A DNA stretch of 64,000 nucleotides. It comes from an uncultured Chloroflexia bacterium (GTDB taxonomy: Bacteria > Chloroflexota > UBA6077 > JACCZL01). This document shows positions 13,824-30,741 of this stretch, in pieces; within the stretch, counting starts at the first letter, position 1; each line of letters starts with the position of its first letter. The notes under the pieces were generated by a model, which saw only the letters and a program-made list of their open reading frames with translations, made no database searches and had not been told where the DNA came from. A program made the translations under genes and the position numbers. The stretch is taken from contig CAVXYC010000001.1 of the NCBI GenBank assembly GCA_963765765.1, positions 288,001 to 352,000 on the forward strand, given 5' to 3'.

Positions 13824-15188
13824 TTAGCTAACCACCACCGTCTTGATGTTCATGAACTCGCGGATGCCATAGCTGCTCAGCTCGCGGCCGTAGCCGGACA
13901 TCTTGATGCCGCCGAACGGCAGGCGCGGGTCGGAGGCCACCAGGCCATTGATGAACGTCGACCCTGCCTCGAGCTCACGGGCAACCCGTTCGCCGCGCTC
14001 GATGTCGCGGGTGAACACGGCCGCGCCGAGTCCGAACACTGAGTCATTGGCGATGCGAATGGCGTCTTGCTCGTCCTTCGCGGTGATGATCGACGCAACC
14101 GGACCGAACAGCTCTTCATCGTAGGCTGGCATACCTGGCTTCACGTCGGTCAGCACCGTGGGCGGGTAGTACGCTCCGGCGTCAGGCGGAACTTCTCCGC
14201 CGAGGAGCACCTTCGCGCCGCGTGCGATGGAGTCCTTCACTTGCTGGTGGAGCTCATCGCGGAGTTCGTGTCGCGCCTGCGGGCCAACATCCGTGTCATC
14301 GGCCAGAGGGTCACCCATCTTCTTGGCTCTCATGAACGCCACGTACTTCTCAGTGAACGTCGCCGCGACCGGCTCCACCACGACGAAGCGCTTTGCGTTG
14401 ATGCAGCTCTGCCCGCTGTTGAGCAGCCTGGAGTTGACGCACGTCTGCGCGGCGAGCTCCAGGTCGGCGTCCTCGAGCACCAGGTACGCGTCCGATCCGC
14501 CCAGCTCCAGTACGGTCTTTTTCAGCACCGCGCCCGCCTGTGACGAGACTGCTTGACCCGCCGGCGTGCTTCCGGTCAGGGTCACCGCCTTGACCAACGG
14601 GTTCTCGATGACCGCCTGCACCTGCTTACTGCCGATGAGCAGGGTGCGGAAAACGTCCTTCGGGAACCCAGCCTGAACGAAGATTTCCTCGATCGCCATT
14701 GCGCAGCCGGGAACGTTGGACGCGTGCTTCAGAACTCCGGCGTTACCCGCCATGAGCGCGGGCGCCGCGAAACGGAACACCTGCCAGAATGGAAAGTTCC
14801 AAGGCATGACGGCCAGCACAATGCCGATTGGATCGAATGCTACGTACGATTTGGCCGAGTCCGTCTTGACCTGTTCCGAAGCAAGCTGCTTCTCGGCGTT
14901 CTCCGCGTAGTACTCGCAGCCCCAGGCACTTTTCTCCGCCTCGGCAACACCCTGCTTCAGCGGCTTGCCCATCTCCTCGGCCATCATCTGTGCGAGCTCT
15001 GTCTTTCGATCGCGCAGGATGCTGGCCGCTCGCTTCATCAGCTCTGCACGATGCGCGAAGGAGGTTGTCCGCCAGGATCTCCACGCTTCGTGCGTCTGCT
15101 TGATGATTTCGGAGACTTGCTCGGGGGTGTGCTCGTCGTAGCTCTTGATCGACTGGCCTGTAGCGGGGTTTACGGATGTGATGGGCAT
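13824..15188 (-). CDS. gabD: NAD(P)-dependent succinate-semialdehyde dehydrogenase
   Basis: AVMPWNFPFWQ, LKHASNVP, LTGS, LELGGSD, catalytic GQSC, EELFGPV. Confidence 0.9.
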   Translation of the reverse strand: MPITSVNPATGQSIKSYDEHTPEQVSEIIKQTHEAWRSWRTTSFAHRAELMKRAASILRDRKTELAQMMAEEMGKPLKQGVAEAEKSAWGCEYYAENAEKQLASEQVKTDSAKSYVAFDPIGIVLAVMPWNFPFWQVFRFAAPALMAGNAGVLKHASNVPGCAMAIEEIFVQAGFPKDVFRTLLIGSKQVQAVIENPLVKAVTLTGSTPAGQAVSSQAGAVLKKTVLELGGSDAYLVLEDADLELAAQTCVNSRLLNSGQSCINAKRFVVVEPVAATFTEKYVAFMRAKKMGDPLADDTDVGPQARHELRDELHQQVKDSIARGAKVLLGGEVPPDAGAYYPPTVLTDVKPGMPAYDEELFGPVASIITAKDEQDAIRIANDSVFGLGAAVFTRDIERGERVARELEAGSTFINGLVASDPRLPFGGIKMSGYGRELSSYGIREFMNIKTVVVS

Positions 15189-15926
15189 CGGCGTTGGTGC
15201 TCCTCGAGTTAGATGCGAGTTGATAGGTACATCGTAACTCCGATGAAGCTGGGCGGCTGGAGGGAAACGCGAGAAGACGACCCCCGAGCACGGGGAGGGC
15301 TCGGGGGGCTAGCGGGGAGGGTGGTGGCCTGGCGCCTGTGCGGGCAAACTGAGCTAAGGATCAGCGAAATGTCTATTCAATGGGCAGCGCGGGCCGCATT
15401 GACCTTCGAAGCGAGAGATGTGCCGTGCGCCGAGTCGTCTGCCGTTACCCCGTGACCCGAGACAGAGGGCTCATTCCAACCTGCCCAGCGCGGGTAGCAA
15501 CGCACGATGCCGCTCCATGTTGATCCAGCTCCCGAAATACGGTGTCCTTCAATTGGTCGAGCGTGCGTGGTCCGATGATCGGGCTGGACGCCCCGGGCGG
15601 TCCAGGCACCAAGCAAGCGCAAGCTGAGTCAGTGAACAGCCTCGTTCCGCCGCAAGGTGTGTCAGAGTATCAATCGCGTCGAAGACGGACCTCGCTTAAC
15701 CCGTTCGGTGAGATTGTGGGCACTGGAGCCCTCGCCGCGTCGTATGTAAATGACATAGATTCGGCGCCGACATGCCATTCGCCATAGTCGAGGAGCGTCC
15801 CACTGCCTTGAGCTGATCGGACGGGAAATCGGGTCGGTCTACGGTAGGAGTCGCTGCCAGAACTGGACAATAGCCTGATCGGGCTATGGGGACCGCTCGT
15901 AAGTTTCAAGGGGTCTTGCCTCACTG

Positions 15927-16739
15927 CTACAAACCATTCGTCGGCGGGGGGCATGCGCCGTGCTCGACGGCACAGACAGCGATCTCGGTACGGCTTTTCA
16001 GCACCCACGCTTCCCCATGATGTGGTTGGCCATCGTCCCGGGCGCGAGCACATGACGCTGGGCGATGCGTTTATTCGTCAGACCCCTCGGCCACCAGCGC
16101 GGTGAGCTCTCGCTCGCGGGCTTTGAGCTACAGTCCGGATCGCGCGGTGCTGTGCCGATCCCGACGACGGGCATCGTGGGTGATTGGCTCGGCACGTGCG
16201 GCGGAATTCACGATCACCGCCATCGCGATTACGCGCGCGGCAGCCTCCAGAAACTCCTGGTCCGCGGCCGTGAAGTGATTGGGGGATCCGGCGTGCGCAT
16301 CGAGCACGCCGACGGCCTGGTTGCCCACCTGCATCCGGCTGAGCACGCCGCTCCGGCTTTCCAGGGCTGTGGCGATGTCACGGCGCTCCTCGGGCTCCGT
16401 ATCGCGGTGCCCGGTGCGGACGCTGGCGCCATCCCTGAAGACCCTGACCGCCAGGCCCCCATCCGGGAGCGGCAGACGATCGACACCGATCGCCCGCTCC
16501 AGACGACCCATGGGGGAACGCGGCGCACGGACGGCGATGAGGCTTTCGGACGAAGCGTCATACAGGAAGATGTCCAGCGCATCAGCCCCCACGGCCTTGA
16601 CGATGATCGCCGACGCCGCATCGAACACGGTCTGGAGCGGCGCGGTGGGATCAACCTGCGCCAGGGCGCAGAGCGCCGCATACCGATTGGTCGCCGGGCG
16701 TGAAGCTTCGGCAGTTGGTGTAAGGAAATTCATCACCAT
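15927..16739 (-). CDS. GAF plus LuxR-HTH regulator (frameshifted or degenerate), paralog of 27222-28022
   Basis: GAF DALDIFLYD..SLIAV..PMGR..GVDRLP..TGH; HTH GLTNKRIA..LAPGTMANH, KSRTEIAVCAVEHG spread over several frames. Confidence 0.8.
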
Positions 16740-16904
16740 AGGGACACCTCGAATGATGGTCGCTGGGAATCTCAGTGGGGGGACATTGAGATGGCATGGT
16801 GCCCACTGTATTGGGGTGACTCGCGCGGGATATGTATGAAATTGCACATCCTCCCATGCAGCGTTCGGTTCATTGTTAGCTGAGCACCAGGAGGGGAGCT
16901 GTCC

Positions 16905-17196
16905 ATGCCGCCAACGGAAGTTATCGCGCTCACGGATGAGATTCACGCACGGTTTGAGCATGGCGAATTCGCCGGGCTGGGCCCGATCGCGGTGGAGGGC
17001 GGGATGTTCCTCCCCGACGCGGAGGTGGTCGCCCGGATCCTGCTCGCGGACGTCGAGGATTGGGCGGTACGCGAGTCCTGGGATCACGTCAGCCCCCCGC
17101 AGTGGAACCATCTCGACCGCGCAGCTGCGCGATTTCCTGCATGAGGTGGAGCACCTTCGCGTCGCGCACGCTCGGCGGAACCGCGTCCCGGCTTGA
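16905..17196 (+). CDS. Protein X family member (copy A), frameshift near 17120
   Basis: EVIALTDEIHARFEHGEFAGLGPIAVEGG..DAEVVARILLADVEDW; strong RBS ggagggg; C-terminus QLRDFLHEVEHLR in another frame. Confidence 0.75.
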
Positions 17197-17218
17197 CGAG
17201 GCGGCGTCCCCTTCCATC

Positions 17219-18220
17219 GTGAAGTGGTTCGAGCTGGCGCTCCAGCGATCACCGATCGTCGTCTACAGTCAGGACACCGAGCTGCGGTACACCTGGATCT
17301 ACAATCCGCACCCGGATTTCGTGCCGGAGACCGTCGGCAAGACCGACGCGGAATTGCTCCGTCCGGACGAGTTCGAGCGGATCCGGGACATCAAGCGGCG
17401 CGTCATGGACACGGGCATCGGCACCCGAGAAACGGTCGTGGTGTCGGTAAGTGGCACGCCCACGTACTTCGACATGACGGTCGAACCGCTGTACGACGCA
17501 CGCGGCGCGATCATCGGCGTGACCGGCTCGTCGGCGGACATCACGGCCCTCATGCGCACCGAGCAGGCGCTGGCCCGGCGCGAGGCCCAGCTCAATGAAG
17601 CGCAGCATGTCGCGCAGATCGGCAGCTGGGAGTGGGACGTGGTCACCAACCAGCTGAGCTGGTCCGCCGAGCAGTATCGCATCATGGGTTTCGATCCGGA
17701 GGCGGGGATGCCGAGCCGTCCGGCGGCGCAGGCACGGATCCATCCCGATGATCGGGAACGAGCCATGCAGCTGTCGCAGCGGAGTGCCGAGACGGGCGAG
17801 CCGTATGCCTCTGATCTGCGCCTGGTGCATCCCGACGGCAATGAGCGCGTGATTCACAGCCGCGGCGCCGTGGTGCGCGATGCCACCGGCCGTGTGGAGC
17901 GCTTGATCGGGACGTCGCAGGACATCACCGAGCGGGTGCAGGCGGATGCCGCGCGGGCGGCCGACCGCGAGGTGCAGGCGCGCCTGGATGGCATGATCTT
18001 CGCGGCCCGGCAGCTCGCCGACCGGATGTCCGACAGCCTGGAGCGATCCTGCGGATGCATGGAGGCATTTCCCTCGGACTCGGCGACCGACGTGGAGATG
18101 CGCGTAGCACTGGACGCGGCCATGCACGACCTCCGCGAGCTGCGGCAGCTGGTGGGCGATGCGTCATCGAGCGATGGGATCGGCTTTCAGGGTGAAGCGA
18201 GTGAGCGGACACCGGGCTGA
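17219..18220 (+). CDS. PAS-PAS(PAS_3) sensory protein with no recognisable output domain
   Basis: VYSQDTELRYTWIYNP..GKTDAEL, DMTVEPLYDARGAIIG; AQIGSWEWDV, IHPDDR, GTSQDITER; start codon uncertain. Confidence 0.82.
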   Translation: MKWFELALQRSPIVVYSQDTELRYTWIYNPHPDFVPETVGKTDAELLRPDEFERIRDIKRRVMDTGIGTRETVVVSVSGTPTYFDMTVEPLYDARGAIIGVTGSSADITALMRTEQALARREAQLNEAQHVAQIGSWEWDVVTNQLSWSAEQYRIMGFDPEAGMPSRPAAQARIHPDDRERAMQLSQRSAETGEPYASDLRLVHPDGNERVIHSRGAVVRDATGRVERLIGTSQDITERVQADAARAADREVQARLDGMIFAARQLADRMSDSLERSCGCMEAFPSDSATDVEMRVALDAAMHDLRELRQLVGDASSSDGIGFQGEASERTPG

Positions 18221-18232
18221 GACGGCGCCACG

Positions 18233-20993
18233 ATGACCGGGATCCAAGCTCGGCAGGTGCCGAGCACGACCATCCCGAGCACCAAGCTCCGCCCTCCCGA
18301 GCTGCCCTCGGATTTCATTCCCCGGCCGCGGGTGCACCAGCGGCTGACGGCCGGCTGGGGATGCCCGCTGATGCTGGTGTGCGCGCCGGCCGGATTCGGG
18401 AAGACGATCGCGCTGGCCGGCTGGCTGCAGGACGCTCGGCGTCCCTGGGTGTGGGTCAGCCTGGACGAGCACGACAGCGACCTGGTGAGCTTCACGCGCG
18501 TGCTCGTCGCGGCGCTGGGCACCGTCGTTCCGCGGGCCGGTCACCAGGCGCTGGCGCTGGCCGCGCAGACCGAGCACCCGTCGCTCAGCCAGTTGAGCGC
18601 CCTGCTGGCCGACGATCTCGCGGGGATCGACCACGAGCTGGTCATCGTGCTGGACGACTTCCACCTGATCCGCGACGAGGCGATCCACGCGCTCGTGGCG
18701 CTGCTGGCGCGGCGTCTCCCGCCGAGCATCCAGCTGGTGCTGGCGAGCCGCGCGGCGCCGCCGCTGCCGGTGGCGCTGCTGGGCGGCCGGCACGCGCTGG
18801 TCGAGGTGCGCGCCGACGACCTGCGCTTCGATCGGGCCGAGGCGCTGGCGTTCGTGCGGGGGATGAGCACGGCCCCGCTCGATCTGCGCGGGGTCGCCGA
18901 AGCGGTCGAGCGGTCGGAGGGCTGGGCGGTGGGGCTGCGCCTGCTGACCCTGGTCGGCGGACCATCCGGGGCGCGGCGGACCGGCCGGTCCGGCGGCTCC
19001 GCAGAAGCAGGACGTGGACGCCTATCTTTTTGACGAGGTGCTGGCCCGCCAGACGCCGGAGCTGCGGCGCTTTCTGATGCAGAGCGGCGATCCTGGAGCG
19101 CTTCTGCGCGCCGCTGTGCGAGGCGGTCGTGGATGGCCTGCAGCCCGGCGACGGCCGGCGCCTGCTGGACGAGAGCCTGGCCGCCGGGCTGTTTGTGACG
19201 GCGCTCGACGACGAGCAGCGCTGGTACCGCTTCCACCACCTGTTCCGCGCCATGCTGCAACGCCGCCTCGAGCACGATGCCGGGGCGGAGGGCGTGCGGG
19301 CGCTGCGGCAGCGGGCCAGCGACTGGCTGGCCGGCCAGGGGTTGTGGGACGAGGCGGCGGCCCAGGCGATCGAGGCGGACGACGTCGGTCGGGTCACGTC
19401 GCTGGTCGAGACCTGTCTGATGACCGAGCGGAGCATCGACGTGGGATTGATGCTCGAGGCGTGGACCCGTCGGCTGCCGCGTGACGTCGTGGAGGCGAGC
19501 CCGACGCTCGTCGCTGGCCCGCTGCGGGATGCTGGCTATCCGCGGCGAGGTGGACGAGCTGGAGTCGGAGCTGCGTCGGCTCGACGCGCTGCTCGCCGCA
19601 TGAGCCGGCGCGCATGAGCGCCGGCCTTGCTGCCGATCGCGCGCGGTCAGATCGACAGGCAGCTCGCGTGGGTGCTCCATCTGAAGGGCGGCGACGATCA
19701 TGAAGCGCTCGCGCGTGCTCGAGCGCGCGCTCGACCTGCTCCCGATGGACCAGTACGACTTCCGCGGCGGCGCCGTCGCACTCTACGCCTTCACGTTGCA
19801 CTGTCTGGGACGGACCGACGAGGCGCTCGCCTGGATCCGCGCCGAGCACGGTCGCGACACGGCGCGGCATCCCGACTACGCCGCGCGCCTGCTGATTGGC
19901 CGGCTGTACGTCGAGCTCGCATCGGGGCGGCTGCCGGCCGCCGTCGAGACCGGCCGGCAGATGGTGGTCTTCGGCAGCGCGCACCAGCAGCCCCTGGCGA
20001 TCGGCTGGGGGCACTACGCCCAGGGACGGGTCGCGTACGAGTGGAACGATCTCGACGGGGCGCGCGCGCACTTCGAGGCCGTGCGGGCGCTCGGCCGCGA
20101 TGCCCATCGCCTGTGCGCGGTCAATGCGACGCTCGGGCTGGCGCAGACGCTCATGGCCGGAGGGCAGCCGGCCGAGGCGGAGCAGCTGGTGCGCGCGGAG
20201 CTCGCGGAAGCCGAGGACGCGGGCAACGCGTTCTTCGTCGAGCGCGTGCGGTCGTTTCTGGCCCGCCTGGCGCTCGCGTCGGATGACCTGGACGGCGCCA
20301 CCCGGTGGCTGGCGGGGGTCACGATCACCCGCCAGGGGATCACGGGGTTCGACATCGAGGATGCGCGGCTCACCCGCGCGCGCGTCCTGGTGGCGCGGGC
20401 CACCTCCGAGGACCTGGAGCCCGGATGAAGCGGCCGCCGCGGTGGACCACGCGATCGCGGCCGCCGACGGCGCGGCACATGATCGCCTCGCTCGTCCAGG
20501 GGCTGGCGCTGCGCGCCGTGGTCGAGCGGTCGCGCGGCGAGCTGCAGCGGGCCGCCGGGTCGCTGGCGCGGGCGCTGGAGCTCGGCGGGCCGGGGCGCTT
20601 CACGCGGACGTTCATCGATCTCGGGCCGCCGCTGACCGCGCTGCTGGCCGAGCTGATGCGCCAGGGCGAGCTGGCGCCGGGCGGACGGCGGGTGCTCATG
20701 GCCTGCCGGGCGGCGTCCGTGGGGACGGCGTTCGGCCGGCCGAGCCGGACGAATCGGTGGTGCCGCTGTCCCGCCGGCCGAGCCGGGACCCGGCTGAGCC
20801 GAGCGTCGCCGAAGCACTGACCTGGCGGGAGCTCGACGTGCTGGCGTTGATGGACGGACACCTCAGCAACGAGGAGATCACGCGGCTGCTGGGGCTGGAC
20901 GACGCGACGCGTGCAGCGGCACATCACCAGCATCGCCAGCAAGCTCCGGGTGGTCGGCCGAGACGACGCGGTGCTGCAGGCCGACGATGGTGA
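18233..20993 (+). CDS. MalT-like ATP-dependent LuxR regulator (multiple frameshifts)
   Basis: TKLRPP, Walker A APAGFGKT, WVSLD, Walker B VLDDFH, SEGWAVGL, WYRFHHLF, TPR-like middle, LTWRELDVL..HLSNEEI HTH. Confidence 0.85.
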
Positions 20994-21071
20994 GACGCCG
21001 CCATCCGACTAACGCTGGCGGCGGAGTGGGACCTCGGCTGACCACCGAGCGCATGACGGCCAGCACCGACG

Positions 21072-22285
21072 ATGGCGAGCGCCATGCGCGCTGATGGTCA
21101 CCTGACGAAGGCGTCGGTGGCGGCGGTCGTGCTCCCGGCCGCCGCCAGCCAGCTGTGGTTCGTCACGCTGCCGCCCTTCCTCCCGACGATCGCCGAGGCG
21201 ATCGGGGTGAGCACGGCGCTGGCGGGCCAGATCGTGGGCCTGCCGGTGTTGCTCGCCGCGGTGCTGATCCTGGGGGTGGGCCCGCTCATCGACGCCTACG
21301 GGCATGCGCGGGTGATGACGGTCGCCCTGGTGGCCATCGCCGTCAGCTCGCTGGGCACCGCGGTGGCCACCGGCGCCGGCGTGCTGCTCGCCGCCCGGCT
21401 GGTGGGCGCATTCGGTCGGGCCGGGGTCATCCCGGCCGCGTTCGTCGATGCCGTGGAGCGGCCCAGCCAGGAGCAGCGCCGCCACGGCACCAGCTGGGTG
21501 GTCGCGGGCGCGGCGGCGGCACCCCTCCTCGGCGTCCCGCTGCTCACGCAGGTCGGGCGCGCAGGCCGGCTGGCGTGTGGCGTTTGTCTTGATCGGCGTC
21601 CTGGCCGCGCTCGCTGCCATGCTGGCGTGGCGACAGCCTCGCGGGCATCCGTCGGCCTCGGCGCGAGCGTCCCGGCCAACGCTGCGCAGTTTCCGGCCGC
21701 TGCTGTCCCGAGCCGGCCATCACGACGGTGCTGCTCTCCTCGCTGGTGGGGAACGCCGGCCTGTGGACGGTCTCACCTACCTCGGGGTGCTCTATCAGAA
21801 CCGGCTGGGGCTTGGGCCCCAGGATGCCGGCTGGGCCCTCACCGCCTTCGGGCTCGGCCAGCTCGCCGGGTCACTGGCGGCGCGGGACCGCCGCGTCGGC
21901 CGGGCCTCGCGTCGCCTGCTGGCCGCCTGTCGTGTGGGGATCGGCGTGCTGCTGGGCCTCGCGTTCCTCATGCCCATCGGAGCGACCGGCCTGGTGGTGC
22001 TGCTCTTCGTGTGGTGGGGTGCTTGGGGGTGTGCAAGCATCCATCATGCCGCTGATCTTGAGTCGACAGCCGTCGTCGGAGACGGGGACCGTCCAATCGC
22101 TCAACTGGCTGGCGCTCACCGCCGGCATCGCCCTGGGGGCCTCGTTCGGCGGCGTCCTCCTTGCGGCCGGCGATATCCCGCTCGTGGGGTTGGGCACGCT
22201 CGGCCTCTCGTGCTTGGCTGCGACGATTCTCTTCTGGCCGCGTTCAGCGAGTCCCACCCCTGCACCACGCTGGCAGAAGTCATAG
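21072..22285 (+). CDS. MFS transporter (frameshifted)
   Basis: Multiple transmembrane segments; GPLIDAYGHARV motif A, LLAARLVGAFG, GWRVAF. Confidence 0.8.
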
Positions 22286-22713
22286 TTTGCTCGCGACGGC
22301 TGCCTAGCGACATGGAGAAATCTGCATCTTTACGGTCGAGACCCGGATGAGCGCCCCGGTCTGGCTCTAGTGTGCTACGCTTGTAGCAGCCGGTCTCCAC
22401 GATGGAGATAAATGGGCGTGGTTTGTTCACGCACGATGTGGCACTTTGGGTCGGCCGCCAGAGGCGTCTCACCAGGCCGTAACGCGAACTTACCTGCTCA
22501 TATTTTGTCCTAGGATTCTTTTCAGCGCCTGGGTGCGCCACACCCAAGAAGTTCCCGGGCACCAGTTACCTGAATACGCTGATTGTCTCGCCAGTGAAGC
22601 GGGGCACACGGATTGCGCTACACATGACACCCGAGCGCCGGGGCGGTGGTCGTGGTTTCCTGACCATTGACCCTTCCCACGCCGAAGCCCAGCCGGTGCC
22701 CAAAGGATTGAAC

Positions 22714-22983
22714 ATGACAGAGCCACCATTGGGATCCGATCGTGCACTGCGACGTTTTCGTGTCGCTCTGGCAGCCGCCGAAGCGGCTCCATCTGCAGCG
22801 TCCGTTGCCTCGCTCAGCGAGGCGGCGCTTCTGCTGAACACCGAGCTTCGCGCTGCTTACGTGGCTGCCGGCAGTCCGTACGGCGATGACCGTGCAGGCA
22901 TGTACCGCTGGCTCCGAGAGGGCATCGGGCGACCGGACACAGGACCTGATGAGATGCAGAGCGATCGCTTCATGACGAGCTAG
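22714..22983 (+). CDS. Small hypothetical protein
   Basis: Helical ORF with AYVAAGSPYGDDRAGMYRWL motif; aagga RBS. Confidence 0.55.
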   Translation: MTEPPLGSDRALRRFRVALAAAEAAPSAASVASLSEAALLLNTELRAAYVAAGSPYGDDRAGMYRWLREGIGRPDTGPDEMQSDRFMTS

Positions 22984-23381
22984 GTCCTACTAGCTAGGAA
23001 GGTGCCGTCCCGACCGGTTGCTACGTCGTCGCCCATAAACGATCGCCGTCTAAAATGAAGAAGCGACAAGAACCCGTTGATGGGAACCAAGCGAACTTCG
23101 CACCGGATGTCGGGCGGATTACCGCCAGCCGGTCTTCGCAGATCGCAGTCGAAGGCCCGTGCTTTACGTGTAGTCGCGCTTTACAAGCGCCACCCGATCG
23201 GGCGCACGACGACCCGGGCTGAGCTAACCTGCCGGTTCACTCTGCCTTGAAGGGGCGCGGTGCAGCGCCCATCGCGATTCGCGACGCGCAAACGTCAGGC
23301 GGCCGCGGTCCATGGCGAGGATGCAGCAGTCCCTGGATGATGTCGGAATGCGCGGTGGCTCCACCACCGCCGAGACGATGG

Positions 23382-23624
23382 TCAACGGTGCAATCCGTGC
23401 TCCATCGTCCACACCGCGATCTGTAAGCGGCTGAACAGTCCCAACGCCCGGAACATGTGCGCTATCTCGTTGGACACGGCTTCGGGCGTCAACGCGAGCC
23501 GCGCGGCAATCTCGCGGTTCGAGAGGCCCTCGGTCACGAGGGCGGCAATGTCTTCCTGGAGCGGACTAAGCACTCCTGGGCAATCGTCGCCGGAATTCGG
23601 GGGCGGATCAAGGTCGGTACGCAT
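23382..23624 (-). CDS. Stand-alone LuxR HTH protein (module 1)
   Basis: LSPLQEDIAALVTEGLSNREIAARLALTPEAVSNEIAHMFRALGLFSRLQIAVW. Confidence 0.85.
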   Translation of the reverse strand: MRTDLDPPPNSGDDCPGVLSPLQEDIAALVTEGLSNREIAARLALTPEAVSNEIAHMFRALGLFSRLQIAVWTMEHGLHR

Positions 23625-23795
23625 CGAGCCACTCCTCAGCACTGGCCGGCTGGTCTCGTCATCGGAGAACCAGCACGCACTCTCTGCGCGATGCTCCCGG
23701 TGGCAGGGCTCAGGCCCAGCAAAAACTGCCGTTCCCCAGGATAGCAGCCAGTGGGAGGAATTACCAAGGGTCTCGCTAGGAATTACCGAGCTCGG

Positions 23796-24071
23796 TCAGC
23801 CGGCAGCGTCGCGCTCGTCCCGATCCTGTCGGAGAAGCTGCCGGGCTTCCGTTCCAACGGTCCGCAGCCGCTGCTCACTGGACGGATGCGTCGGGTGCGT
23901 GCGATCCCACTCGCGGATGTCCTCGATGTCGGCGAGGACGATCCGCGCCACAAGCTCCGCTTCCATCACTGTTCCGCCGTCGAGCGTCACCGGCGGCAGC
24001 CCGTAAAAGGCGCCGCGCTGCAATCTAGCATCCAGCTCCGCGGCGAGGGCGTCTAATTCGGGCCAATCCAT
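23796..24071 (-). CDS. Protein X family member (copy B)
   Basis: MDWPELDALAAELDARLQRGAFYGLPPVTLDGGTVMEAELVARIVLADIEDIREWD; RBS ggggag. Confidence 0.82.
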   Translation of the reverse strand: MDWPELDALAAELDARLQRGAFYGLPPVTLDGGTVMEAELVARIVLADIEDIREWDRTHPTHPSSEQRLRTVGTEARQLLRQDRDERDAAG

Positions 24072-24093
24072 CGCCAACTCCCCATTGAGTGCG

Positions 24094-24190
24094 CTACGTT
24101 TTGCGATGTGATCCGTCGGGCCGCGGTGAACGGATCACACCAGCATCGATGGTGTTCCGGCCCCAGCTCCAGTCTGCGAATCGTTAGCAC
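24094..24190 (-). promoter_or_regulatory. Conserved leader element, diverged copy (module 1)
   Basis: Minus strand GTGCTAACGATTCGCAGACTG...GGGCCG...CGGCCC GACGGATCAC ATCGCAAAACGTAG, homologous to 25113-25200 and 29377-29471. Confidence 0.55.
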
Positions 24191-24570
24191 CATCTCGCGA
24201 TTTAAGAGGCGCGGTGGAGGATAGTCCAGTAAGCCCGCAGGTGCGACACGTGTAATACATAACGGGTGAGTACACAGTCTGGTTGGCACAGTCTCCCTGC
24301 GTAGTGCAACGCGCAGGGCGGTTCGGATCTTCGTCGATGTCGAGCAGGTCAGTTATAGGTCGTACGGGACTTAAATGCGACGTCGCCTGCGGTGGTCACA
24401 GATCCAGCGCCCTGTATGAATGGTGCGCCCGGGGCCGAGTCGGGGGAGTCACGGCGCAACGTGTCGTCTCGGGCCCCGGGCACCACGTTAGCGGTGTAGG
24501 GGCGGACTGACTCACGGTCAGTGCGGTATCGAACACAGCGCGTCCGTCCGCTTCGACCAGGGGTCAGTGA

Positions 24571-24768
24571 TTACGATGGGTGGTCGATCGCCCACAGGGC
24601 AATCTGTACGCGGGTGATAAGTCCCAACGCCCGGAACAGGCCCACTATTTGGTCGGACACGGCTTCGGGCGTTAACGCGAGCCGCGCGGCAATCTCACGG
24701 TTCGAGAGGCCCTCGGCCACGAGCGCGGCAACGTCCGCCTGGAAAGTGTAAGCATTCATCGACACCAT
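24571..24768 (-). CDS. Stand-alone LuxR HTH protein (module 2)
   Basis: QADVAALVAEGLSNREIAARLALTPEAVSDQIVGLFRALGLITRVQIALWA. Confidence 0.82.
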   Translation of the reverse strand: MVSMNAYTFQADVAALVAEGLSNREIAARLALTPEAVSDQIVGLFRALGLITRVQIALWAIDHPS

Positions 24769-24780
24769 CAGACGGCAGGT

Positions 24781-25074
24781 TCAATAGATGTAGGCAGATT
24801 GTGTTGCGGCAGCGTGGCGCTCGTTCCGGCCAAGTCGCAGAAGCTGCCGAGCATGCGTTCCAACAGCTTGCAGCCATCTCTCACCGGTCGGATGCGGCCG
24901 GTTCTTACGATCCCACTCGCGGATGTGCTCAATATCGGCGAGGACGATTCGCGCCATGAGCTCCGCTTCTATAACATGTCCGCCCTCGAGCGTCACAGGC
25001 AGCCCCCGCAAGCCTCCGCGCTGTAATCGGGCTTGCAGCTTCATCGCGAGCGCGTCTAATTCCGGGCAATTCAT
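24781..25074 (-). CDS. Protein X family member (copy C)
   Basis: MNCPELDALAMKLQARLQRGGLRGLPVTLEGGHVIEAELMARIVLADIEHIREWD. Confidence 0.82.
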   Translation of the reverse strand: MNCPELDALAMKLQARLQRGGLRGLPVTLEGGHVIEAELMARIVLADIEHIREWDRKNRPHPTGERWLQAVGTHARQLLRLGRNERHAAATQSAYIY

Positions 25075-25112
25075 TGCCAACTCCACGTGGGTGCGTCGGC
25101 CTGGTTTGACTC

Positions 25113-25200
25113 CTACGTTGCGGTGTGCTCCGTCTGCAGGCCGCGATCAAATGTATCCAATGCTCTTCGACCTGCAGCGACAGTCTGCGAGTCGGAGCAC
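25113..25200 (-). ncRNA. Candidate structured 5' leader (module 2)
   Basis: Outer stem GUGCUCCG/CGGAGCAC, bulge ACUCGCAGACUG, inner stem CUGCAGGUCG/CGGCCUGCAG, tail ACCGCAACGUAG. Confidence 0.5.
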
Positions 25201-25764
25201 CACTGGAATACAAATCGCAGGTTACCAAGCGAGCCGGCCGCGCGGAACATGCAGTTGTGCACTAATTCGGGCGCCCAAAGACACAAGAGACCGCCAGCAC
25301 GATGAAACCCGGCTCTCTCAGTGCTGGCGGTCTACCGTCCGAGCGCATTCTAACGGTGCACGTTCCAGAAATCGGTTAACGGCTTGACAGTCTAGATGGG
25401 GCCACATCACCGTAGCAGTGTGCCGTTGTATACATAGGGGGCTGCCGAGCCATTGCTATGCTGAGATGCCCGTGTGAGCCTCGCGGAGTCCGGGCATGCA
25501 TGGTTCCGATTCAGGTCCCATGCACTCTCCATGAGCGAACTCCGGGAGGCTCAACCAGAGAACACCGTCGCGGGGCTCGTCGGCACCACGTTGGCGGAGT
25601 GGATGTCGACTCCTACCTGAGCCGATTCCGCGAATGATCACGGCTCGGGACAGCTCTGTGCTCCTCGACGTGGTCACAAATCGCCTGCGCACGCCGAGGC
25701 ATCGGAGCGCTGCCTACGCCACTGTTCAGAAGTAGGGGGAGAGCCAGGCGATGTTCGATGTTCT

Positions 25765-25888
25765 TCGTAGCACGGGGGCTTGTCCTGTCCTGAGTTGCCC
25801 CGGCATCCGACGACGGATCCAGCCTGATTCTCCCCGTGGCCGGCGCCTATGGCGCTCCAGGCACAAGGGACAAGCCCCCGTGCTACGA
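25765..25888. repeat. REP doublet (GTAG type)
   Basis: Perfect 21-bp inverted repeat tcgtagcacgggggcttgtcc (25765-25785) / 25868-25888. Confidence 0.8.
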
Positions 25889-26078
25889 CAGTCGTCCGGC
25901 GGATCGTCCCCGCAACTCTGAACACGTCCATCTGGTCGAGAAGCTTCCAACAAACGTCCGACTTCCCTCTAACTGATCTCTGATGCGAGCGTCGGTATGC
26001 TCTGGTCGAGGCCGTTTCGGATCCTCCCAGCGATCCGAAAGGCTGTCGAATCCATTCTTTGCAGAGGAGGGATTGACC

Positions 26079-26294
26079 ATGCCCCAATCATGGTCACCGA
26101 CAGTCGGCGACGAAGTACGCGTGAAATCATTTGGAGAACGTGGGCCTATCGTGCGCATCGAAGGCTCCGGTGATTCGGCCGTGTACGCGGTGAACAGCCG
26201 CAGGTATCGCTTTGTTGACGCCGACGGTCAGATCAAGAACACCGCCCTGGAGCCGAGGGAGTGCTCCATCGCCGATCTCGAGCCAATCAGCTAG
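26079..26294 (+). CDS. Small SH3/KOW-like beta-barrel hypothetical protein
   Basis: RBS gaggagg; PTVGDEVRV..GPIVRIEG..YAV..DLEP pattern; own terminator follows. Confidence 0.7.
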   Translation: MPQSWSPTVGDEVRVKSFGERGPIVRIEGSGDSAVYAVNSRRYRFVDADGQIKNTALEPRECSIADLEPIS

Positions 26295-26301
26295 ATAAAG
26301 A

Positions 26302-26333
26302 CAGATAAGCCCCGTATTCCCGGGGCTTATCTG
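26302..26333 (+). terminator. 13-bp perfect hairpin
   Basis: cagataagccccg-tattcc-cggggcttatctg. Confidence 0.7.
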
Positions 26334-26398
26334 GTTCCACGGTGCCCCTGCTGCAGCGCAGGGACACGGTGTCGATCGCACCGCTAACCAAACTGCTC

Positions 26399-26620
26399 AT
26401 GTCACGAAGACGGACACGTGCTGCCGGTCCTGGACGGGCACAATCAACCACGGATATGGGTCTGGTATGAAGCACATCTTCGCGCATGTCACAGCCTGGT
26501 AAGAGAAGCACGGCCCGTCCCGCCCGGACATCGGCTGACAACGACGTGTCGCCCCCGCCACTGCATCAACCCTGATGACTGGGCCGCCGTGCGCAGAGGT
26601 GACTTCTTCCGATCAATGAA
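26399..26620 (+). pseudogene. HNH endonuclease remnant (phage HNH_3-like)
   Basis: CCRSWTGTINHGYG..AHVTAW*EKHGP/VPPGHRLTTTCRPRHCINPDDW; in-frame stop plus frameshift. Confidence 0.7.
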
Positions 26621-26806
26621 GCGCCCTGTTCATCGGTGTTGGTGTGATCGTTCGAGTCCATACGCATCTCTCGGGAGCATGGGACTAGACAGAGCTCGGC
26701 GACACGGGCCCAACGCATGGGTCAAGGCCTGATCGATGCGGCGGCTCCGCGCGGTATGGTCTCTGCAGGACAGCGGCATTCCTCATACACGACGCGAGGT
26801 GGTGCC

Positions 26807-27077
26807 ATGGAATGGTTGGAGGTGGACAGAGTCGCGGACCAGCTGCATCGCTTGCTCCATCGGGGAGCGTTTCGGGGACTCCCCGGAGGTGGCCGTGGAT
26901 GCGGTTCATATGATGGATGCGGAGCTGGTGGTTCGGATCACGCTGGCGGATATGGCGCACATCCGCGACTGGGATGTCGCGCATCCGCTTACGCCAATGC
27001 CCGATTCTCGCCGACGGGACTTGGCCGAGGCCGGCTATCGACTCCTGGGACTGGTGGAAGCGGTTCGGTCGCTCTGA
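26807..27077 (+). CDS. Protein X family member (copy D), one frameshift near 26885
   Basis: MEWLEVDRVADQLHRLLHRGAFRGLP/EVAVDAVHMMDAELVVRITLADMAHIRDWD. Confidence 0.78.
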
Positions 27078-27221
27078 CTGGTCCGGCCATCTGGTATCCT
27101 TCTGCACGGGCATGTTTCGCCGGCCCGCTCGTCGGGCTTGGCTTCGGGGCAACACCAGCCTCGGCAACACTTCTTTCGTCCTTGCTGACGAGACCTGCCC
27201 AGTACGCGGCAGGTAAGTGCC

Positions 27222-28022
27222 ATGCTCGGCAATTTCGACTTTCTCTCCTATTCGGACGACCGGTTGCTGGACGCGCTCGAGCGTCTGGTCGTTCTCCCAG
27301 GGTTGGAGCTGCGTCCCACGCTTGACGAGGCGTCGACGGTGGTGGCCGAGGCGGTGGACGCCGACAAGGTTGACGTCTTTTTGTACAAGGCGAATAAAGA
27401 CAGCCTGGTGGCGCTGGGCACCAGCGACACACCCATGGGACGCAAACAGCTCGCGCTCGGGCTGGACCGCTTCCCGCGCGCCAACGCCGGACCACTCTGG
27501 CGGGTGTTCGAGACGGGCGAGACGTATCGCACCGGCCACGCCGAGCAGGACCCGACCCAGCCCCGTGGGCTGATCGAGGCGCTCGGGGTGTGCAGCCAGG
27601 TGCATGTGGCCGTGGATGTGCGGGGCGAGCGGCGCGGTGTCCTGGGGGTCGTGAGCCAGCGCGAGGAGCACTTCAGCGAACGCGATCAGCGCTTTCTCAC
27701 TGCCGTGGCCGGCTGGATCGGGCTGCTCATGCACCGAGCCGAGGTGGTGGAGCAGCGCGACCGGGAGATCGACCGGCAGGCGCGGCGGGAGGCCGGCGAC
27801 GAGCTGGCCCGAATCACCCGCCGACAGCAGGAAGTCGCTGCGCTGGTGGCGGAGGGTCTGAGTAACGAGGAGATCGGCGTACGGCTCACGCTGGAGGCCG
27901 GCACGGTGGCCAATCACATGGAAAACATCCTGAAGCGGCTCGAGCTGCGGAATCGGACCAGCCTGGCGGTCTGGGCGGTGGAGCGCGGACTGTATCGGTC
28001 CGATTGGGGCGAGAACGGATGA
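27222..28022 (+). CDS. GAF plus LuxR-HTH transcriptional regulator
   Basis: ADKVDVFLY..SLVALGTSDTPMGR..FSERDQRFL; ITRRQQEVAALVAEGLSNEEIG..TVANH. Confidence 0.9.
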   Translation: MLGNFDFLSYSDDRLLDALERLVVLPGLELRPTLDEASTVVAEAVDADKVDVFLYKANKDSLVALGTSDTPMGRKQLALGLDRFPRANAGPLWRVFETGETYRTGHAEQDPTQPRGLIEALGVCSQVHVAVDVRGERRGVLGVVSQREEHFSERDQRFLTAVAGWIGLLMHRAEVVEQRDREIDRQARREAGDELARITRRQQEVAALVAEGLSNEEIGVRLTLEAGTVANHMENILKRLELRNRTSLAVWAVERGLYRSDWGENG

Positions 28023-28109
28023 GCGCGCCCGACGACGGAAGGGCAATTGGACGACTGGATCGTGAACGGCGCGATTGGCGCTTCGACCTCACGGCGGAAG
28101 GGGTAATAG

Positions 28110-28625
28110 TTACCGAGACCGATGACATCGCACCGGATTCCTGTCGCTCGGTCCTTGGTCAAACCGACTCCCACCGAGCCGCGCCCGGCAATCCGTTGCC
28201 CAGCCCGCTGCCTGTGCTGAAACCGTCCGAAGGCGCTCGGCGTCGAGCACGGCCTGATGTTCCGCCTCGAGTCGAAGCTGGGCATCGCGCTGACTCTGCG
28301 CGAGACGGAGCTCCAAGTGCTCCTGGAACTGCACACCGTAGGCGATCATGACTTCGAGCAGGAATTGCTGACCGCATCCCTCGAGGTGGGCACGCTCGCG
28401 GGCCGATTGGCCGGCGAGCGCCCGATCGAAGCTCTCGAAGTGGAGCGCGATGATGTCCTCGGGCCCGAGTCCTCCGCGGATCAGGTGCTGACTCAGCTGC
28501 GAGACCCGGTAGAGCGCATCCTCGCTGCGCGTGGCGATGTAGCCGCGCAGGAGGTCTTCGTACGCGTCGGGGCCGAACTCCGGCTCATCAGTAGCGAGCT
28601 GTGCGGCCTGGGAATCAAAAACCAT
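28110..28625 (-). CDS. RsbU N-terminal domain protein with no catalytic domain (stand-alone or truncated)
   Basis: YEDLLRGYI..SEDALY..LGPEDIIALH..FLLEVMIAYG resembles the B. subtilis RsbU N-terminus; coiled coil, then non-homologous tail. Confidence 0.8.
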   Translation of the reverse strand: MVFDSQAAQLATDEPEFGPDAYEDLLRGYIATRSEDALYRVSQLSQHLIRGGLGPEDIIALHFESFDRALAGQSARERAHLEGCGQQFLLEVMIAYGVQFQEHLELRLAQSQRDAQLRLEAEHQAVLDAERLRTVSAQAAGWATDCRARLGGSRFDQGPSDRNPVRCHRSR

Positions 28626-28806
28626 GGGAGGCTTGTTCAGTCGGACGGATGGACGGCGACGGCGCCAGGCGCGTGTCCAAGGCGGGACCGACGGATGCGC
28701 CATTGTCGCGGGCTCAGCTTTCGGCCGGGCAGATTCCTCGTGCGGAGCAGGCGCCGCACGGTCAGTCCGCTACCGAACACGGCGCGTCCGTCCGCTTCGA
28801 GCACGG

Positions 28807-28998
28807 TCAGCGGTGCGATCCATGCTCGATCGCCCACGGAGCAATCTGTAAGCGGGAGGTCACTCCCAGCGCCCGGAACAGGCTCGCTATCTCGTTGGAC
28901 ACGGCTTCGGGCGTTAACCCGAGTCGCTCGACAATCTCGCGGTTCGAGAAGCCCTCCGCCACGAGTGCGGCAACGTCCTTCTGGAGGGGTGTAACCAT
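28807..28998 (-). CDS. Stand-alone LuxR HTH protein (module 3)
   Basis: TPLQKDVAALVAEGFSNREIVERLGLTPEAVSNEIASLFRALGVTSRLQIAPWAIEHG. Confidence 0.82.
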   Translation of the reverse strand: MVTPLQKDVAALVAEGFSNREIVERLGLTPEAVSNEIASLFRALGVTSRLQIAPWAIEHGSHR

Positions 28999-29010
28999 TC
29001 ATCGACACTA

Positions 29011-29322
29011 TCAGACAGCAGGTTCAATGGATATCGGGTGAGATTGGGCCCTGGCACCGTCACACTCGTCCCGGTCCATTTGCAGGAGCTGCTGGGCATC
29101 CGTTTCGACAGCTCGCAGTCGTCTCTTCCCGGAGAGATGCGTCGGGCGCGTCGGGTACCACTCGCAGAGATCCTCGATGTCGGCGAGGACAAGCCGCGCC
29201 ACGAGCTCCGCTTCCATGACCTTCCCGCCGTCGAGCGTCACAGGCGACAGCCCGCGAAACGCTCCGCGCTGCAATCTGGCCTGCAGCTCCACAGCGAGCG
29301 CGTCCAATTCGGGGCAATCCAT
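29011..29322 (-). CDS. Protein X family member (copy E)
   Basis: MDCPELDALAVELQARLQRGAFRGLSPVTLDGGKVMEAELVARLVLADIEDLCEW; RBS ggaggt. Confidence 0.82.
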   Translation of the reverse strand: MDCPELDALAVELQARLQRGAFRGLSPVTLDGGKVMEAELVARLVLADIEDLCEWYPTRPTHLSGKRRLRAVETDAQQLLQMDRDECDGARAQSHPISIEPAV

Positions 29323-29376
29323 CGCCACCTCCACATGGGTGCGTCGGGCCCACAATCATGCCGCCTGCTTTCGATC

Positions 29377-29471
29377 CTACGTTGCGGTGTGCTCCGTGGT
29401 GGGTCGGCAGACCACGATTGAACGTATCCGATCGTCTTCGGCCCACCACGCCAGTCCGCGAGTCGGAGCAC
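29377..29471 (-). ncRNA. Candidate structured 5' leader (module 3)
   Basis: Outer stem GUGCUCCG/CGGAGCAC, bulge ACUCGCGGACUG, inner stem GUGGUGGG/CCCACCAC, tail ACCGCAACGUAG. Confidence 0.5.
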
Positions 29472-29543
29472 CACTGCCCAAGATATCAAGCGACCGGGGC
29501 GCGCGAACCCATAGATATGCACAAATTGGGGTACGGAAAGCGA

Positions 29544-29656
29544 CTTACGCAGTGTGGAAGGATTTCGGACAATCAGGTTACGAGGGACCTGATACGGCGT
29601 TCGAGGACGGCCATTTCATATCAGGGCACCCGACCGGGCAGCGAAATTGGTCTTGG
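29544..29656 (+). repeat. Diverged direct repeat of a regulatory-like element (copy 1; copy 2 at 31017-31130)
   Basis: gtggaaggatttcggacaatcaggttacga and agcgaaattggtcttgg, starts 86 nt apart. Confidence 0.75.
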
Positions 29657-30155
29657 TCAAGGCGGACCCGACTCCGTGCCTGGGCGGGGCGCTGGTGAGC
29701 AGGTAGAGCACTGCCGCGCCAAACGGCCGCCGCGTGCTCAGGATTAGCCGAAGGGAAAGCCGGAAAGGCGAAGTGAGGCACGCCCGCCCCGGCTTTCCCG
29801 AGCGCCGCTGGGGGGTGGGTCCACCTCCCACGGTACTTAGAGATTACCGAATGGGGACCGCCCCGGTGGGATTTATCGGGTCTCGGGTCCGTCACGACGC
29901 CCATACCGTGGACGCCTCGCAGACTTGGTTGCTCGAATCGCTTCTGGCGAACGGAAGCGGTCGCCTTGGACGCCGGTCCTGCCGCCGCCTGCGTCGGCAG
30001 TCAAGCGGCCCCGAGCACCACGGCGTGGATGCCGATGCCAGGGGCCGTCTAAGTTCGGCTGCGGAGCTCGGGGTTGACGTGGGCGGGCCGCCTGGTGACT
30101 GCCCGCTGCGTGATCGGAATCTCCGCCGCGGCACGTGGGAAATACGCGGGTAGGG

Positions 30156-30206
30156 GAAGGCCACACCGATCGCTCCTGAGGTTCAGGAGCGATCGGTGTG
30201 GCCTTC
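30156..30206 (-). terminator. Perfect 24-bp hairpin downstream of the secreted protein gene
   Basis: gaaggccacaccgatcgctcctga-ggt-tcaggagcgatcggtgtggccttc. Confidence 0.75.
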
Positions 30207-30234
30207 GGTACGGTCGTGGCGAATGCTGGAGGAC

Positions 30235-30741
30235 TTACGGGTCGAGGATTCCTACCAGCGCGCAGAGCAGGTTGCCCAGCAGGCTGCCCGGGCCCGCTAT
30301 CGCGTAGATGTCGATCTCGATCGGCCCAATATCAACCACCAGCCCCAGGAGGTTGAGGACGAGCCCGTCGTCCGGTATGAAGAGGCTGAGGATGGGACAC
30401 GACCCCTCCGGTGCTACGGTGGCTTCAACGTTGTTGAACTTCTCCGAGACTTTCTTTTCTTGCCCGTTCTGCTTCGCGGTACCCTCGACCTCGCCGCTGA
30501 TGAGCAGCTTATTGCTGCCCTTCTTCGCCTTGACGTCGGTGATCTCGATCTGGCCGTCGAAGGTGCCGACCTTCTTGCCGGACTTGTCCTTGAGGTCCGC
30601 CCCCTTCACGTCCTTCTTGATCGTCTTCTCCGCGGCCGGAGCGGCAGCATCGGCGGTTTGCGGTGGGAGTAGGAGTCCGGGGACTATGAGCGCGCCCACG
30701 AGGGCTGCAGTCAGAGAAAACATAGTCAGACGCAGTTTCAC
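30235..30741 (-). CDS. Secreted protein with Cys-bounded hydrophobic C-terminal domain (CPIL..LNLLGL..GPGSLLGNLLC)
   Basis: Signal peptide ending ADA; Lys-rich beta region; GC3-rich codon usage; RBS gaggt. Confidence 0.85.
   Translation of the reverse strand: MKLRLTMFSLTAALVGALIVPGLLLPPQTADAAAPAAEKTIKKDVKGADLKDKSGKKVGTFDGQIEITDVKAKKGSNKLLISGEVEGTAKQNGQEKKVSEKFNNVEATVAPEGSCPILSLFIPDDGLVLNLLGLVVDIGPIEIDIYAIAGPGSLLGNLLCALVGILDP

Follow-up and report, generated by a model that had tools for sequence, protein, structure and literature searches.

Helix-turn-helix (HTH) domains of the LuxR/GerE type are among the commonest output domains of bacteria, and in response regulators of the NarL/FixJ type such a domain shares one chain with a receiver (REC) domain. 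To our knowledge, control of LuxR-type HTH proteins by direct contact comes down to a handful of unrelated cases, TraM, QslA, Aqs1 and RapF. In the NepR/PhyR/sigma-EcfG system of the Alphaproteobacteria, a short helical protein binds a sigma region-4-like or HTH-like domain, and a receiver-controlled mimic competes. Here we present a computational analysis of a stretch of 64,000 nucleotides (nt) from an uncultured soil bacterium (G000:C1:288001-352000, hereafter the window), which carries five copies of a small protein, designated X, beside genes for LuxR-type regulators. X is a new protein family that would do a known kind of job, and it possibly has a new role as the output domain of sensors. 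On the strength of gene linkage, domain fusions and modelled structures, we give about even chances to the reading that X is an output or adaptor domain which binds LuxR-type HTH domains and probably inhibits them.

In Bacillus subtilis, the N-terminal antiparallel three-helix bundle of RapF, together with its linker, binds the LuxR-type HTH of ComA and blocks its binding to DNA (PMC3246441). RapF buries the DNA-contact residues of ComA and spares the dimer interface, which is formed by helix alpha10, the alpha7-alpha8 loop and alpha8, and a related Rap protein contacts the receiver Spo0F by another face of the bundle; the authors speculate that the bundle and linker alone might suffice (PMC3246441). 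Of the small inhibitors covered by a review, the phage protein Aqs1 binds the DNA-binding domain of LasR, TraM acts allosterically on TraR, and QslA binds the ligand-binding domain of LasR (PMC13043044).

A profile of X was built from the window copies and run on the 99,334 six-frame open reading frames (ORFs) of the source genome, a metagenome-assembled genome of 6.49 Mb in 33 contigs with a completeness of 91.8% and a contamination of 6.9%. An earlier reading of the window from its letters (the sequence-only reading) had described five paralogs of about 95 residues, and the profile recovered all five where that reading had placed them, each far past chance (Table 1). X2, X3 and X5 are intact stand-alone genes, each with an ATG start and the motif GGAG 7 nt upstream, and start codons are conserved among X genes; X4, however, is frame-broken, and X1 is a domain of a larger broken gene. 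Nor is the family limited to the region first described: the profile search found 23 copies across seven contigs (C1, C10, C14, C15, C20, C27 and C32), about 15 of them full-length with a start codon and about 8 truncated or frame-broken.

That X carries no recognised domain was borne out, with no match to a characterised family in any library tried (Pfam, NCBIfam, PHROGs, PADLOC and the PDB sequences). No Pfam family recurs at E ≤ 5 among the 39 members of the family alignment, and at the same threshold none of them matches the anti-sigma domains zf-HC2, RskA and NepR or the RsbU_N domain in Pfam. The PDB sequences gave one chance-level hit (E 1.6), ESM Atlas gave no usable match, and no sequence relation to the TraM, QslA, Aqs1 and Rap families was found in Pfam, NCBIfam, the PDB sequences or PHROGs. 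A histidine phosphotransfer domain, a kind of helical bundle that occurs with receivers, was considered and rejected, as there is no invariant His and the His that follows the A-D-I-E/D motif is Asp or Tyr in several members.

X is rare outside this genome. A word-based search returned 27 close relatives, all of them metagenome proteins, and an exhaustive profile search of 1.84 billion representative proteins returned 131 clusters at E ≤ 1e-3 (31 at E ≤ 1e-10; 117 shorter than 150 residues). When the window's own genome and 40 relatives were searched, 41 in all, X was found only in the former (24 matches) and in G006, an unpublished genome of another genus (8 matches); G001, of the same genus and 92% complete, had 0. 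In a phylum-wide search of lower sensitivity, with only 13 candidates scored per genome, 1 of 401 genomes matched, the window's own, and the 400 others gave nothing, and a pattern scan of genome contigs with the X alignment found 0 relatives.

X is under purifying selection, although the constraint is only moderate: the ratio of nonsynonymous to synonymous substitution rates (dN/dS) among five paralogs has a median of 0.42 and a range of 0.29-0.50 across all 10 pairs, and is in no pair near 1. Across the 39 aligned members D48 alone never varies, and L13, A38, A42, R43, I44, L46 and W55 are near-invariant. About 190 nt upstream of the X2-type genes are also conserved across paralogs and metagenome contigs (24072-24260, 25075-25234 and 29323-29482 on the minus strand, and likewise in L001 and L024-L031); this region includes the ribosome-binding site and inverted-repeat stretches and may be a promoter or operator. 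A structured RNA leader was rejected, as RNAalifold gave no consensus and the folding z-scores of six leaders ranged from -1.9 to +1.45, no better than shuffled sequence; Rfam gave no match at E ≤ 0.1 within 15000-31000.

The link between X and LuxR-type regulators is very strong in the source genome, which holds 54 GerE and 77 receiver matches. Of the 23 X copies, 14 have a GerE HTH no more than 1 kb away, where random placement gives a mean of 0.44 and 0 of 5000 placements reach 14, and a receiver lies within 300 nt of 4 copies, where 0.30 are expected and again 0 of 5000 placements reach the observed count. The linkage also holds elsewhere, at 10 of 15 metagenome X loci (9 with a GerE match and 1 with a partial HTH at a contig end) and at 3 of 6 loci in G006. 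Within the window, the neighbourhoods are as first described: X2, X3 and X5 are directly upstream of HTH-only LuxR genes, X4 is upstream of a GAF-LuxR gene, and X1 is divergent from another GAF-LuxR gene and has PAS-PAS and MalT-like genes downstream. The pairing is not the strict two-gene module first proposed: order and orientation vary by locus, either gene may come first, and divergent and convergent arrangements occur too. Receivers are linked as well.

The LuxR partners fall into four classes. Class A comprises HTH-only proteins of 63-80 residues that adjoin X2-type copies, class B the GAF-LuxR proteins that adjoin X4-type copies, class C the LuxR proteins beside X copies that also have a divergent receiver, and class D the GAF-LuxR proteins divergent from X-PAS-PAS. 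The five window HTHs had been thought all alike, but their likeness is confined to the helix 1-2 region and is generic to the family; the three HTH-only proteins form one class and the two GAF-LuxR proteins two others. LuxR2, LuxR3, LuxR5 and the class B GAF-LuxR all score above the gathering score of the GerE family PF00196 (23.5 bits). X-linked LuxR proteins are HTH-only or GAF-HTH, with no receiver in the chain, and the nearby receivers are separate single-domain genes. The AlphaFold2 model of LuxR2 has a predicted local distance difference test score (pLDDT) of 77, and consists of a disordered 20-residue tail followed by helices 21-31, 36-42, 47-60 and 66-77. Its best Foldseek match is the NarL-DNA complex 1je8_E (E 3.7e-3, probability 1.00, TM-score 0.73 by target, 37% identity over 60 columns), with further matches to DosR, VpsT, LiaR and GerE.

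Class A differs from the other GerE copies of the genome at the very segment that would read DNA. In 6 of 6 genome copies its recognition helix follows A-V-S-N/D-E-I (one has T-A-S-D-E-I, one has Q for E), and the usual pattern T-V-x-x-H/Y...K/R, taken from the other GerE copies, is absent from class A and kept in the GAF-LuxR classes B and D. The net charge of the recognition segment is 0 to -2 in class A, whereas for 38 of the remaining 40 GerE copies it lies between +1 and +5, and the whole class A proteins have an isoelectric point (pI) of 4.5-6.0. This version of the helix is kept in metagenome partners, so it is conserved and not a product of random decay, and to judge from these residues class A proteins may lack the usual mode of DNA binding. 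The sole other homolog of LuxR5 found is one metagenome protein with 83% identity. The sixth class A copy, at G000:C17:80234-80395, is on a contig where no X was detected.

The sequence-only reading had put forward, as one possible role, that X is an input domain acting in trans on these regulators, and the fusions of X speak against this. Pfam scans of 18 longer X relatives revealed X-PAS-PAS (P0045, P0103 and an intact gene on contig C14), X-PAS (P0072, P0077), X-GAF (P0111, 3 members on 3 contigs), REC-X with X at the C-terminus (P0066, 2 members) and GerE-X (P0105, a single contig), with the core X motif kept in all of them. Because X is fused to REC, PAS-PAS, PAS and GAF, its behaviour is that of an output or adaptor that serves sensors, not that of an input domain, and since it is the sole non-sensor domain of REC-X and X-GAF, it is the only candidate output there.

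X itself is predicted to be an acidic three-helix bundle of about 85 residues. Its AlphaFold2 model, from the 39-row alignment, has a pLDDT of 87 and a predicted template-modelling score of 0.77, with helices at 3-18, 38-58 and 64-90 and a small hairpin. With a net negative charge in 35 of the 39 members and a median pI of 5.5, X is itself an unlikely binder of DNA. Foldseek gave no match to X in the PDB at E ≤ 1e-3, and the wide VIA-align search gave only generic three-helix bundles, the best of which (Z 9.9) scores too low to be informative for folds of this helical kind. TraM, QslA, Aqs1 and the Rap N-terminal bundle are absent from these lists of fold matches, an absence that does not exclude likeness.

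With both partners entered as alignments, the X2-LuxR2 complex reached a median score of 0.63 (runs of 0.63, 0.65 and 0.63), and the best of three controls scored 0.00. The mark used for this score is reached by 116 of 157 solved complexes and by 2 of 215 mismatched pairs, and is only a rough guide here, where the alignments were our own. The runs agreed in at least 98% of contacts, with a partner pLDDT of 76-77. In the model, the interface of X spans residues 40-58 and 65-75, which include the near-invariant R43, I44 and W55 and the invariant D48, and that of LuxR2 spans residues 30-36, 47-58 and 64-75, which include the invariant V30, G33, N36, P47, I54, F58, R66 and A70. Set against the helix limits of the LuxR2 model, this contact zone takes in helix 4, one face of helix 3 (the recognition helix) and the stretch from the end of helix 1 through the loop before helix 2. 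The dimer elements of ComA are equivalent to this zone, which would place X on the dimer surface, so that X binding and HTH dimerisation would exclude each other.

We propose that X acts on LuxR/GerE HTH domains through protein-protein contact. A stand-alone X, such as X2, X3 or X5, would be co-produced with a minimal HTH-only LuxR and would bind it by helix 2, which carries the A-R-I-x-L-A-D motif and then the conserved Trp, and by helix 3. These two X helices are predicted to lie over the last helix of the HTH, one face of its recognition helix, and the end of its first helix with the loop that follows, which together make up the surface through which HTH domains of the NarL and ComA type dimerise. 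Binding would most likely prevent the formation of a DNA-binding dimer of the regulator and make X an anti-activator, with a scaffold or co-activator role also conceivable; as to the sign of regulation, which we infer from the modelled contact, inhibition is more likely than activation. Where X is fused to a sensor or adjoins a receiver, it would be the module by which sensors reach a LuxR regulator in trans, the direction of signal flow being likewise our inference. The first description of X as a dedicated partner of these LuxR regulators is upheld computationally, by the lack of a known family, linkage, selection and the predicted complex, but has to be revised for the linked receivers, the fusions, the varied gene order and the broken copies.

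Several points weigh against X as an inhibitory HTH-binding domain. The complex score reports model confidence only, and the LuxR partner alignment has just 9 rows. X and class A LuxR are both acidic, so the predicted contact is not brought about by opposite charges, and class A proteins, lacking T-V-x-x-H...K, may not bind DNA, which weakens a simple anti-activator picture. X-PAS-PAS has a second unassigned helical segment, at the C-terminus, which could be the true output, making the output argument weaker for that fusion. As to linkage, 9 of the 23 genome copies have no GerE match within 1 kb, one of the nine (X1) lying beside a broken HTH, and there is no GerE at 5 of 15 metagenome and 3 of 6 G006 loci, where the contigs are only 1-3 kb long (1-3.3 kb for the metagenome loci). 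X copies descend from duplications of entire modules and so do not count as independent cases in the neighbourhood statistics, although order and orientation differ between loci; in the window, for instance, the X5-LuxR5 unit with its flanks (28757-29476) is a duplicate of the X3-LuxR3 unit (24513-25205). Distances among X and among LuxR partners are not significantly correlated (7 pairs, Mantel r 0.38, a value reached in 1045 of 5000 permutations). Finally, about 8 of the 23 copies are truncated or frame-broken, and a dN/dS of 0.3-0.5 reflects moderate constraint only.

Set beside the known systems, the proposed role of X has counterparts and clear differences. If the prediction holds, X would be a minimal form of what is seen in RapF-ComA, an electronegative three-helix bundle on a four-helix HTH of the LuxR/FixJ/NarL type; moreover, Rap bundles contact both an HTH and a receiver, and X adjoins genes for both. 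However, Rap proteins have a large tetratricopeptide repeat domain and take Phr peptides as their signal, whereas X has a length of about 85 residues or is fused to REC, PAS or GAF, and the predicted place of X is chiefly the dimer surface, at helix 4 and the loop between helices 1 and 2, and not, as for RapF, the DNA-contact residues. Aqs1, TraM and QslA are likewise small and largely helical, and they inactivate LuxR-type regulators through direct contact, but they target acyl-homoserine-lactone receptors and are single genes, compared with about 23 copies of X, and are not known to be fused to sensors. A search of open-access full-text literature on small helical inhibitors of LuxR-type HTH domains returned the known anti-activators and nothing like X.

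The system has features in common with two signalling architectures. By analogy with NepR/PhyR, it seems to combine a small helical binder, HTH domains apparently unfit for DNA contact, and receivers; it differs in that the HTH is of the LuxR type and the regulators are not extracytoplasmic function (ECF) sigma factors, and X has no anti-sigma match in Pfam. As in NarL/FixJ regulators, both a receiver and a LuxR HTH are present in X neighbourhoods, and the HTH-only partners fold like the C-terminal domains of NarL, DosR and GerE, but here receiver and HTH are separate genes with X between or beside them, and in P0066 the receiver is fused to X rather than to an HTH. Copy number, sensor fusions, the receiver link and the predicted use of the dimer face set X apart from the known anti-activators.

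The alternative that fares best, which we nonetheless consider unlikely, is that X binds the HTH-only LuxR and acts positively, supplying a missing oligomerisation or regulatory domain so that the complex is the active factor. The class A partners are bare HTH domains of 63-80 residues with no N-terminal domain, LuxR3 and LuxR5 each begin 12 nt past the stop codon of X3 and X5, a gap which suggests co-translation, and the predicted X2-LuxR2 complex (0.63 against 0.00 for the best control) suits a co-activator too. However, contact on the dimer surface and part of the recognition helix fits blocking better, the GAF-LuxR and MalT-like regulators with which X is paired elsewhere have regulatory domains of their own, and the class A recognition helix is without the usual DNA-contact pattern. 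That conserved, non-standard helix is the basis of a more elaborate scheme, to us a distinctly unlikely one, in which a LuxR-centred partner switch would operate by domain mimicry: X, as a general inhibitor, would cap the dimer face of the true LuxR regulators (GAF-LuxR, MalT-like and NarL-type), class A proteins, with the X-binding face retained but the usual DNA-contact residues gone, would be decoys that titrate X, and X fused to sensors (REC-X, X-PAS-PAS, X-GAF) or linked to receivers would add dependence on a signal.

We regard it as improbable that X is a regulated target, that is, a small acidic protein of unrelated function beside the LuxR gene that controls it, although the sequence-only reading had listed X as a conserved output of these regulators among its options. 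Adjacency alone would also suit a regulator and its target, and the conserved 190 nt upstream of the X2-type genes could contain an operator. The fusions and the predicted interface disfavour this: X is joined to REC, PAS and GAF and is the only candidate output in REC-X and X-GAF, its most conserved residues fall in the predicted HTH interface, and in the tight units the X gene comes first and is read in the same direction as the LuxR gene, not divergently.

A selfish origin seems very improbable. Under it, X-LuxR pairs would be addiction (toxin-antitoxin-like) cassettes, with the HTH as antitoxin or autorepressor, that were amplified and are now decaying, as might be read from small, tightly linked pairs in 23 copies, a patchy distribution (0 matches in G001 and X in 2 of 41 genomes including the source) and the broken third or so of the copies. 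Against it, X has no match in PADLOC, PHROGs, Pfam toxin families, plasmids or phages, there is no fixed two-gene operon, the order being variable and the partners different (GAF-LuxR, REC), and fusion to sensor domains is not a toxin trait. We also know of no toxin class that resembles an acidic three-helix bundle. Least credible is that X ORFs are functionless, lineage-specific repeats that duplicate along with LuxR genes, for although 2 of the 5 window copies and all genes of the X1 block are broken and constraint is only moderate, dN/dS is 0.29-0.50 in 10 of 10 pairs, start codons and ribosome-binding sites are conserved, one motif is kept across 131 clusters of many metagenome contigs, and the fold is confidently predicted.

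Table 1. X copies and other features of the window (positions are those of the window)
Feature	Position	Strand	Evidence
GAF-LuxR, class D, divergent from X1, frame-broken within the HTH	15924..16869	-	GAF in ORF 16128-17252
X1, X domain, N-terminal part of a frame-broken X-PAS-PAS gene	16905..17144	+	profile 16905-17129, E 1e-21
PAS-PAS part and C-terminal helical tail of the broken gene of X1	17174..18220	+	PAS_4, PAS_3 and PAS matches
MalT-like regulator (AAA_16, TPR_MalT and LuxR HTH), in at least 4 frames	18233..20993	+	Pfam matches on separate ORFs
Y, member of a second small-protein family, convergent with X2-LuxR2	22594..22983	+	paralog alignment; no Pfam, PHROGs or PADLOC match
LuxR2, HTH-only LuxR/GerE, 80 aa, class A	23382..23624	-	GerE 35.2 bits
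X2, intact stand-alone X gene, 91 aa	23796..24071	-	profile 23802-24071, E 1e-46; AlphaFold2 pLDDT 87
LuxR3, HTH-only LuxR/GerE, 65 aa, class A	24571..24768	-	GerE 26.2 bits
X3, intact stand-alone X gene, 97 aa	24781..25074	-	profile 24796-25074, E 2e-42; repeat family D1
X4, frame-broken X gene	26807..27077	+	profile 26807-26884, E 2e-5, and 26871-27062, E 3e-17, in two frames
GAF-LuxR, class B, intact, downstream of X4	27222..28022	+	GAF_2; GerE 52.8 bits
RsbU_N-domain ORF without catalytic domain, downstream of X5-LuxR5	28110..28703	-	RsbU_N 57.8 bits
LuxR5, HTH-only LuxR/GerE, 63 aa, class A	28807..28998	-	GerE 34.4 bits
X5, intact stand-alone X gene, 103 aa	29011..29322	-	profile 29041-29322, E 8e-43

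The broken copies of X in the window can be read against intact or near-identical relatives. In X4, the frame break is an extra C within the C-run 26881-26884, as judged from a twin on contig C14 whose DNA is 97% identical (L002:4030-4320). The twin has a different one-base insertion of its own, about 22 nt upstream of the position of that in X4, and the GAF-LuxR gene downstream is intact in both places; the two insertions could be independent inactivations or an assembly error in a repeated region. The class B GAF-LuxR of the window is 68% identical to the C14 paralog, which likewise lies behind an X4-type copy. The counterpart of the X1 gene, also on C14, is an intact X-PAS-PAS gene of 439 residues (L002:5773-7089, minus strand). 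Its residues 1-70 align to 16905-17114 at 88.6%, residues 71-88 to 17116-17169 in a second frame, and residues 90-437 at 79% identity to the window from 17174 to about 18214-18220 in a third frame, so that the X1-bearing gene breaks at about 17115 and about 17170. A further X1-type copy, on contig C32, is 98.6% identical and broken at a different place.

The block 15924-22350, to which X1 belongs, has a G+C content of 73-75% against about 62% around it, and its GAF-LuxR, X-PAS-PAS, MalT-like and major facilitator superfamily (MFS) genes are all frame-broken. The class D GAF-LuxR is 76% identical to an intact paralog on C32 across 16736-15924, and alpha2-alpha3 of its HTH are in another frame, at 16087-15947 (HTH remnant 16019-16087, E 2e-5). 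The HTH of the MalT-like gene is split at about 20909. Contigs of four soil sequencing runs, from related organisms and not from this one, show single-base losses or gains near 18990, 19084, 20750, 20910, 21028 and 21364-21367; those at 18990, 19084 and 20910, in the MalT-like gene, are bases that the related contigs lack. No sequencing run shared over 18% of its sequence words with the stretch's own set, counted as a share of the latter, and RNA runs were absent from the matches. Genome-wide there are 29 open frames of at least 1000 residues and 687 of at least 500, and since the genome retains such long frames, the breaks are local and reflect real decay or local assembly error.

Other genes near X bear on the wider LuxR neighbourhoods. 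Upstream of the block, the aldehyde dehydrogenase at 13824-15188, the one protein compared for taxonomy, is closest (75%) to a protein of an Acidobacteriota metagenome-assembled genome, and many phyla come next at 60-69%, which does not suffice for a placement of the organism. The RsbU_N ORF downstream of X5-LuxR5 has a coiled-coil-like tail and no phosphatase domain, and has paralogs at C1:33302-33751 and C32:205636-205998, the latter near a receiver gene. The family of Y has a core of about 70 residues (from about 22714 in the window) and about 14 paralogs in the genome, many of them 0.2-1 kb from GerE genes: C1:1279-1455, C28:21273-21461, C20:470762-470938, C20:696554-696739, C10:46716-46940, C14:309430-309648, C25:69049-69234, C27:95613-95904 and others, some of which share loci with X. 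A relation of Y to X was rejected (hhalign probability 0.2%). LuxR neighbourhoods of this genome therefore hold at least two unassigned small helical families, X and Y. Between two X copies on C10 lies a gene for a 486-residue protein with PAS, HisKA, HATPase_c and a C-terminal GerE HTH (L001:4937-6394, that is G000:C10:62936-64393), an unusual fusion of a kinase and an HTH. The region G000:C32:221000-250000 is a dense LuxR-family cluster with several class B GAF-LuxR genes, receivers and two Y copies, and has no X copies.

The reach of these findings is limited by the uncultured soil source and by the rarity of the family, with its 131 clusters among 1.84 billion representatives. The minimal size of X would fit the idea, voiced in the RapF paper, of a bare bundle that blocks an HTH, and such a bundle could serve as a tool. 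If the partner switch is true, the system would be a LuxR counterpart of the mimicry known from sigma-EcfG, NepR and PhyR, and X would be a new type of output for sensors of the receiver, PAS and GAF kinds. More generally, X would add a modular, in-trans wiring of sensors to LuxR regulators, and an output domain for both two-component and one-component signalling.

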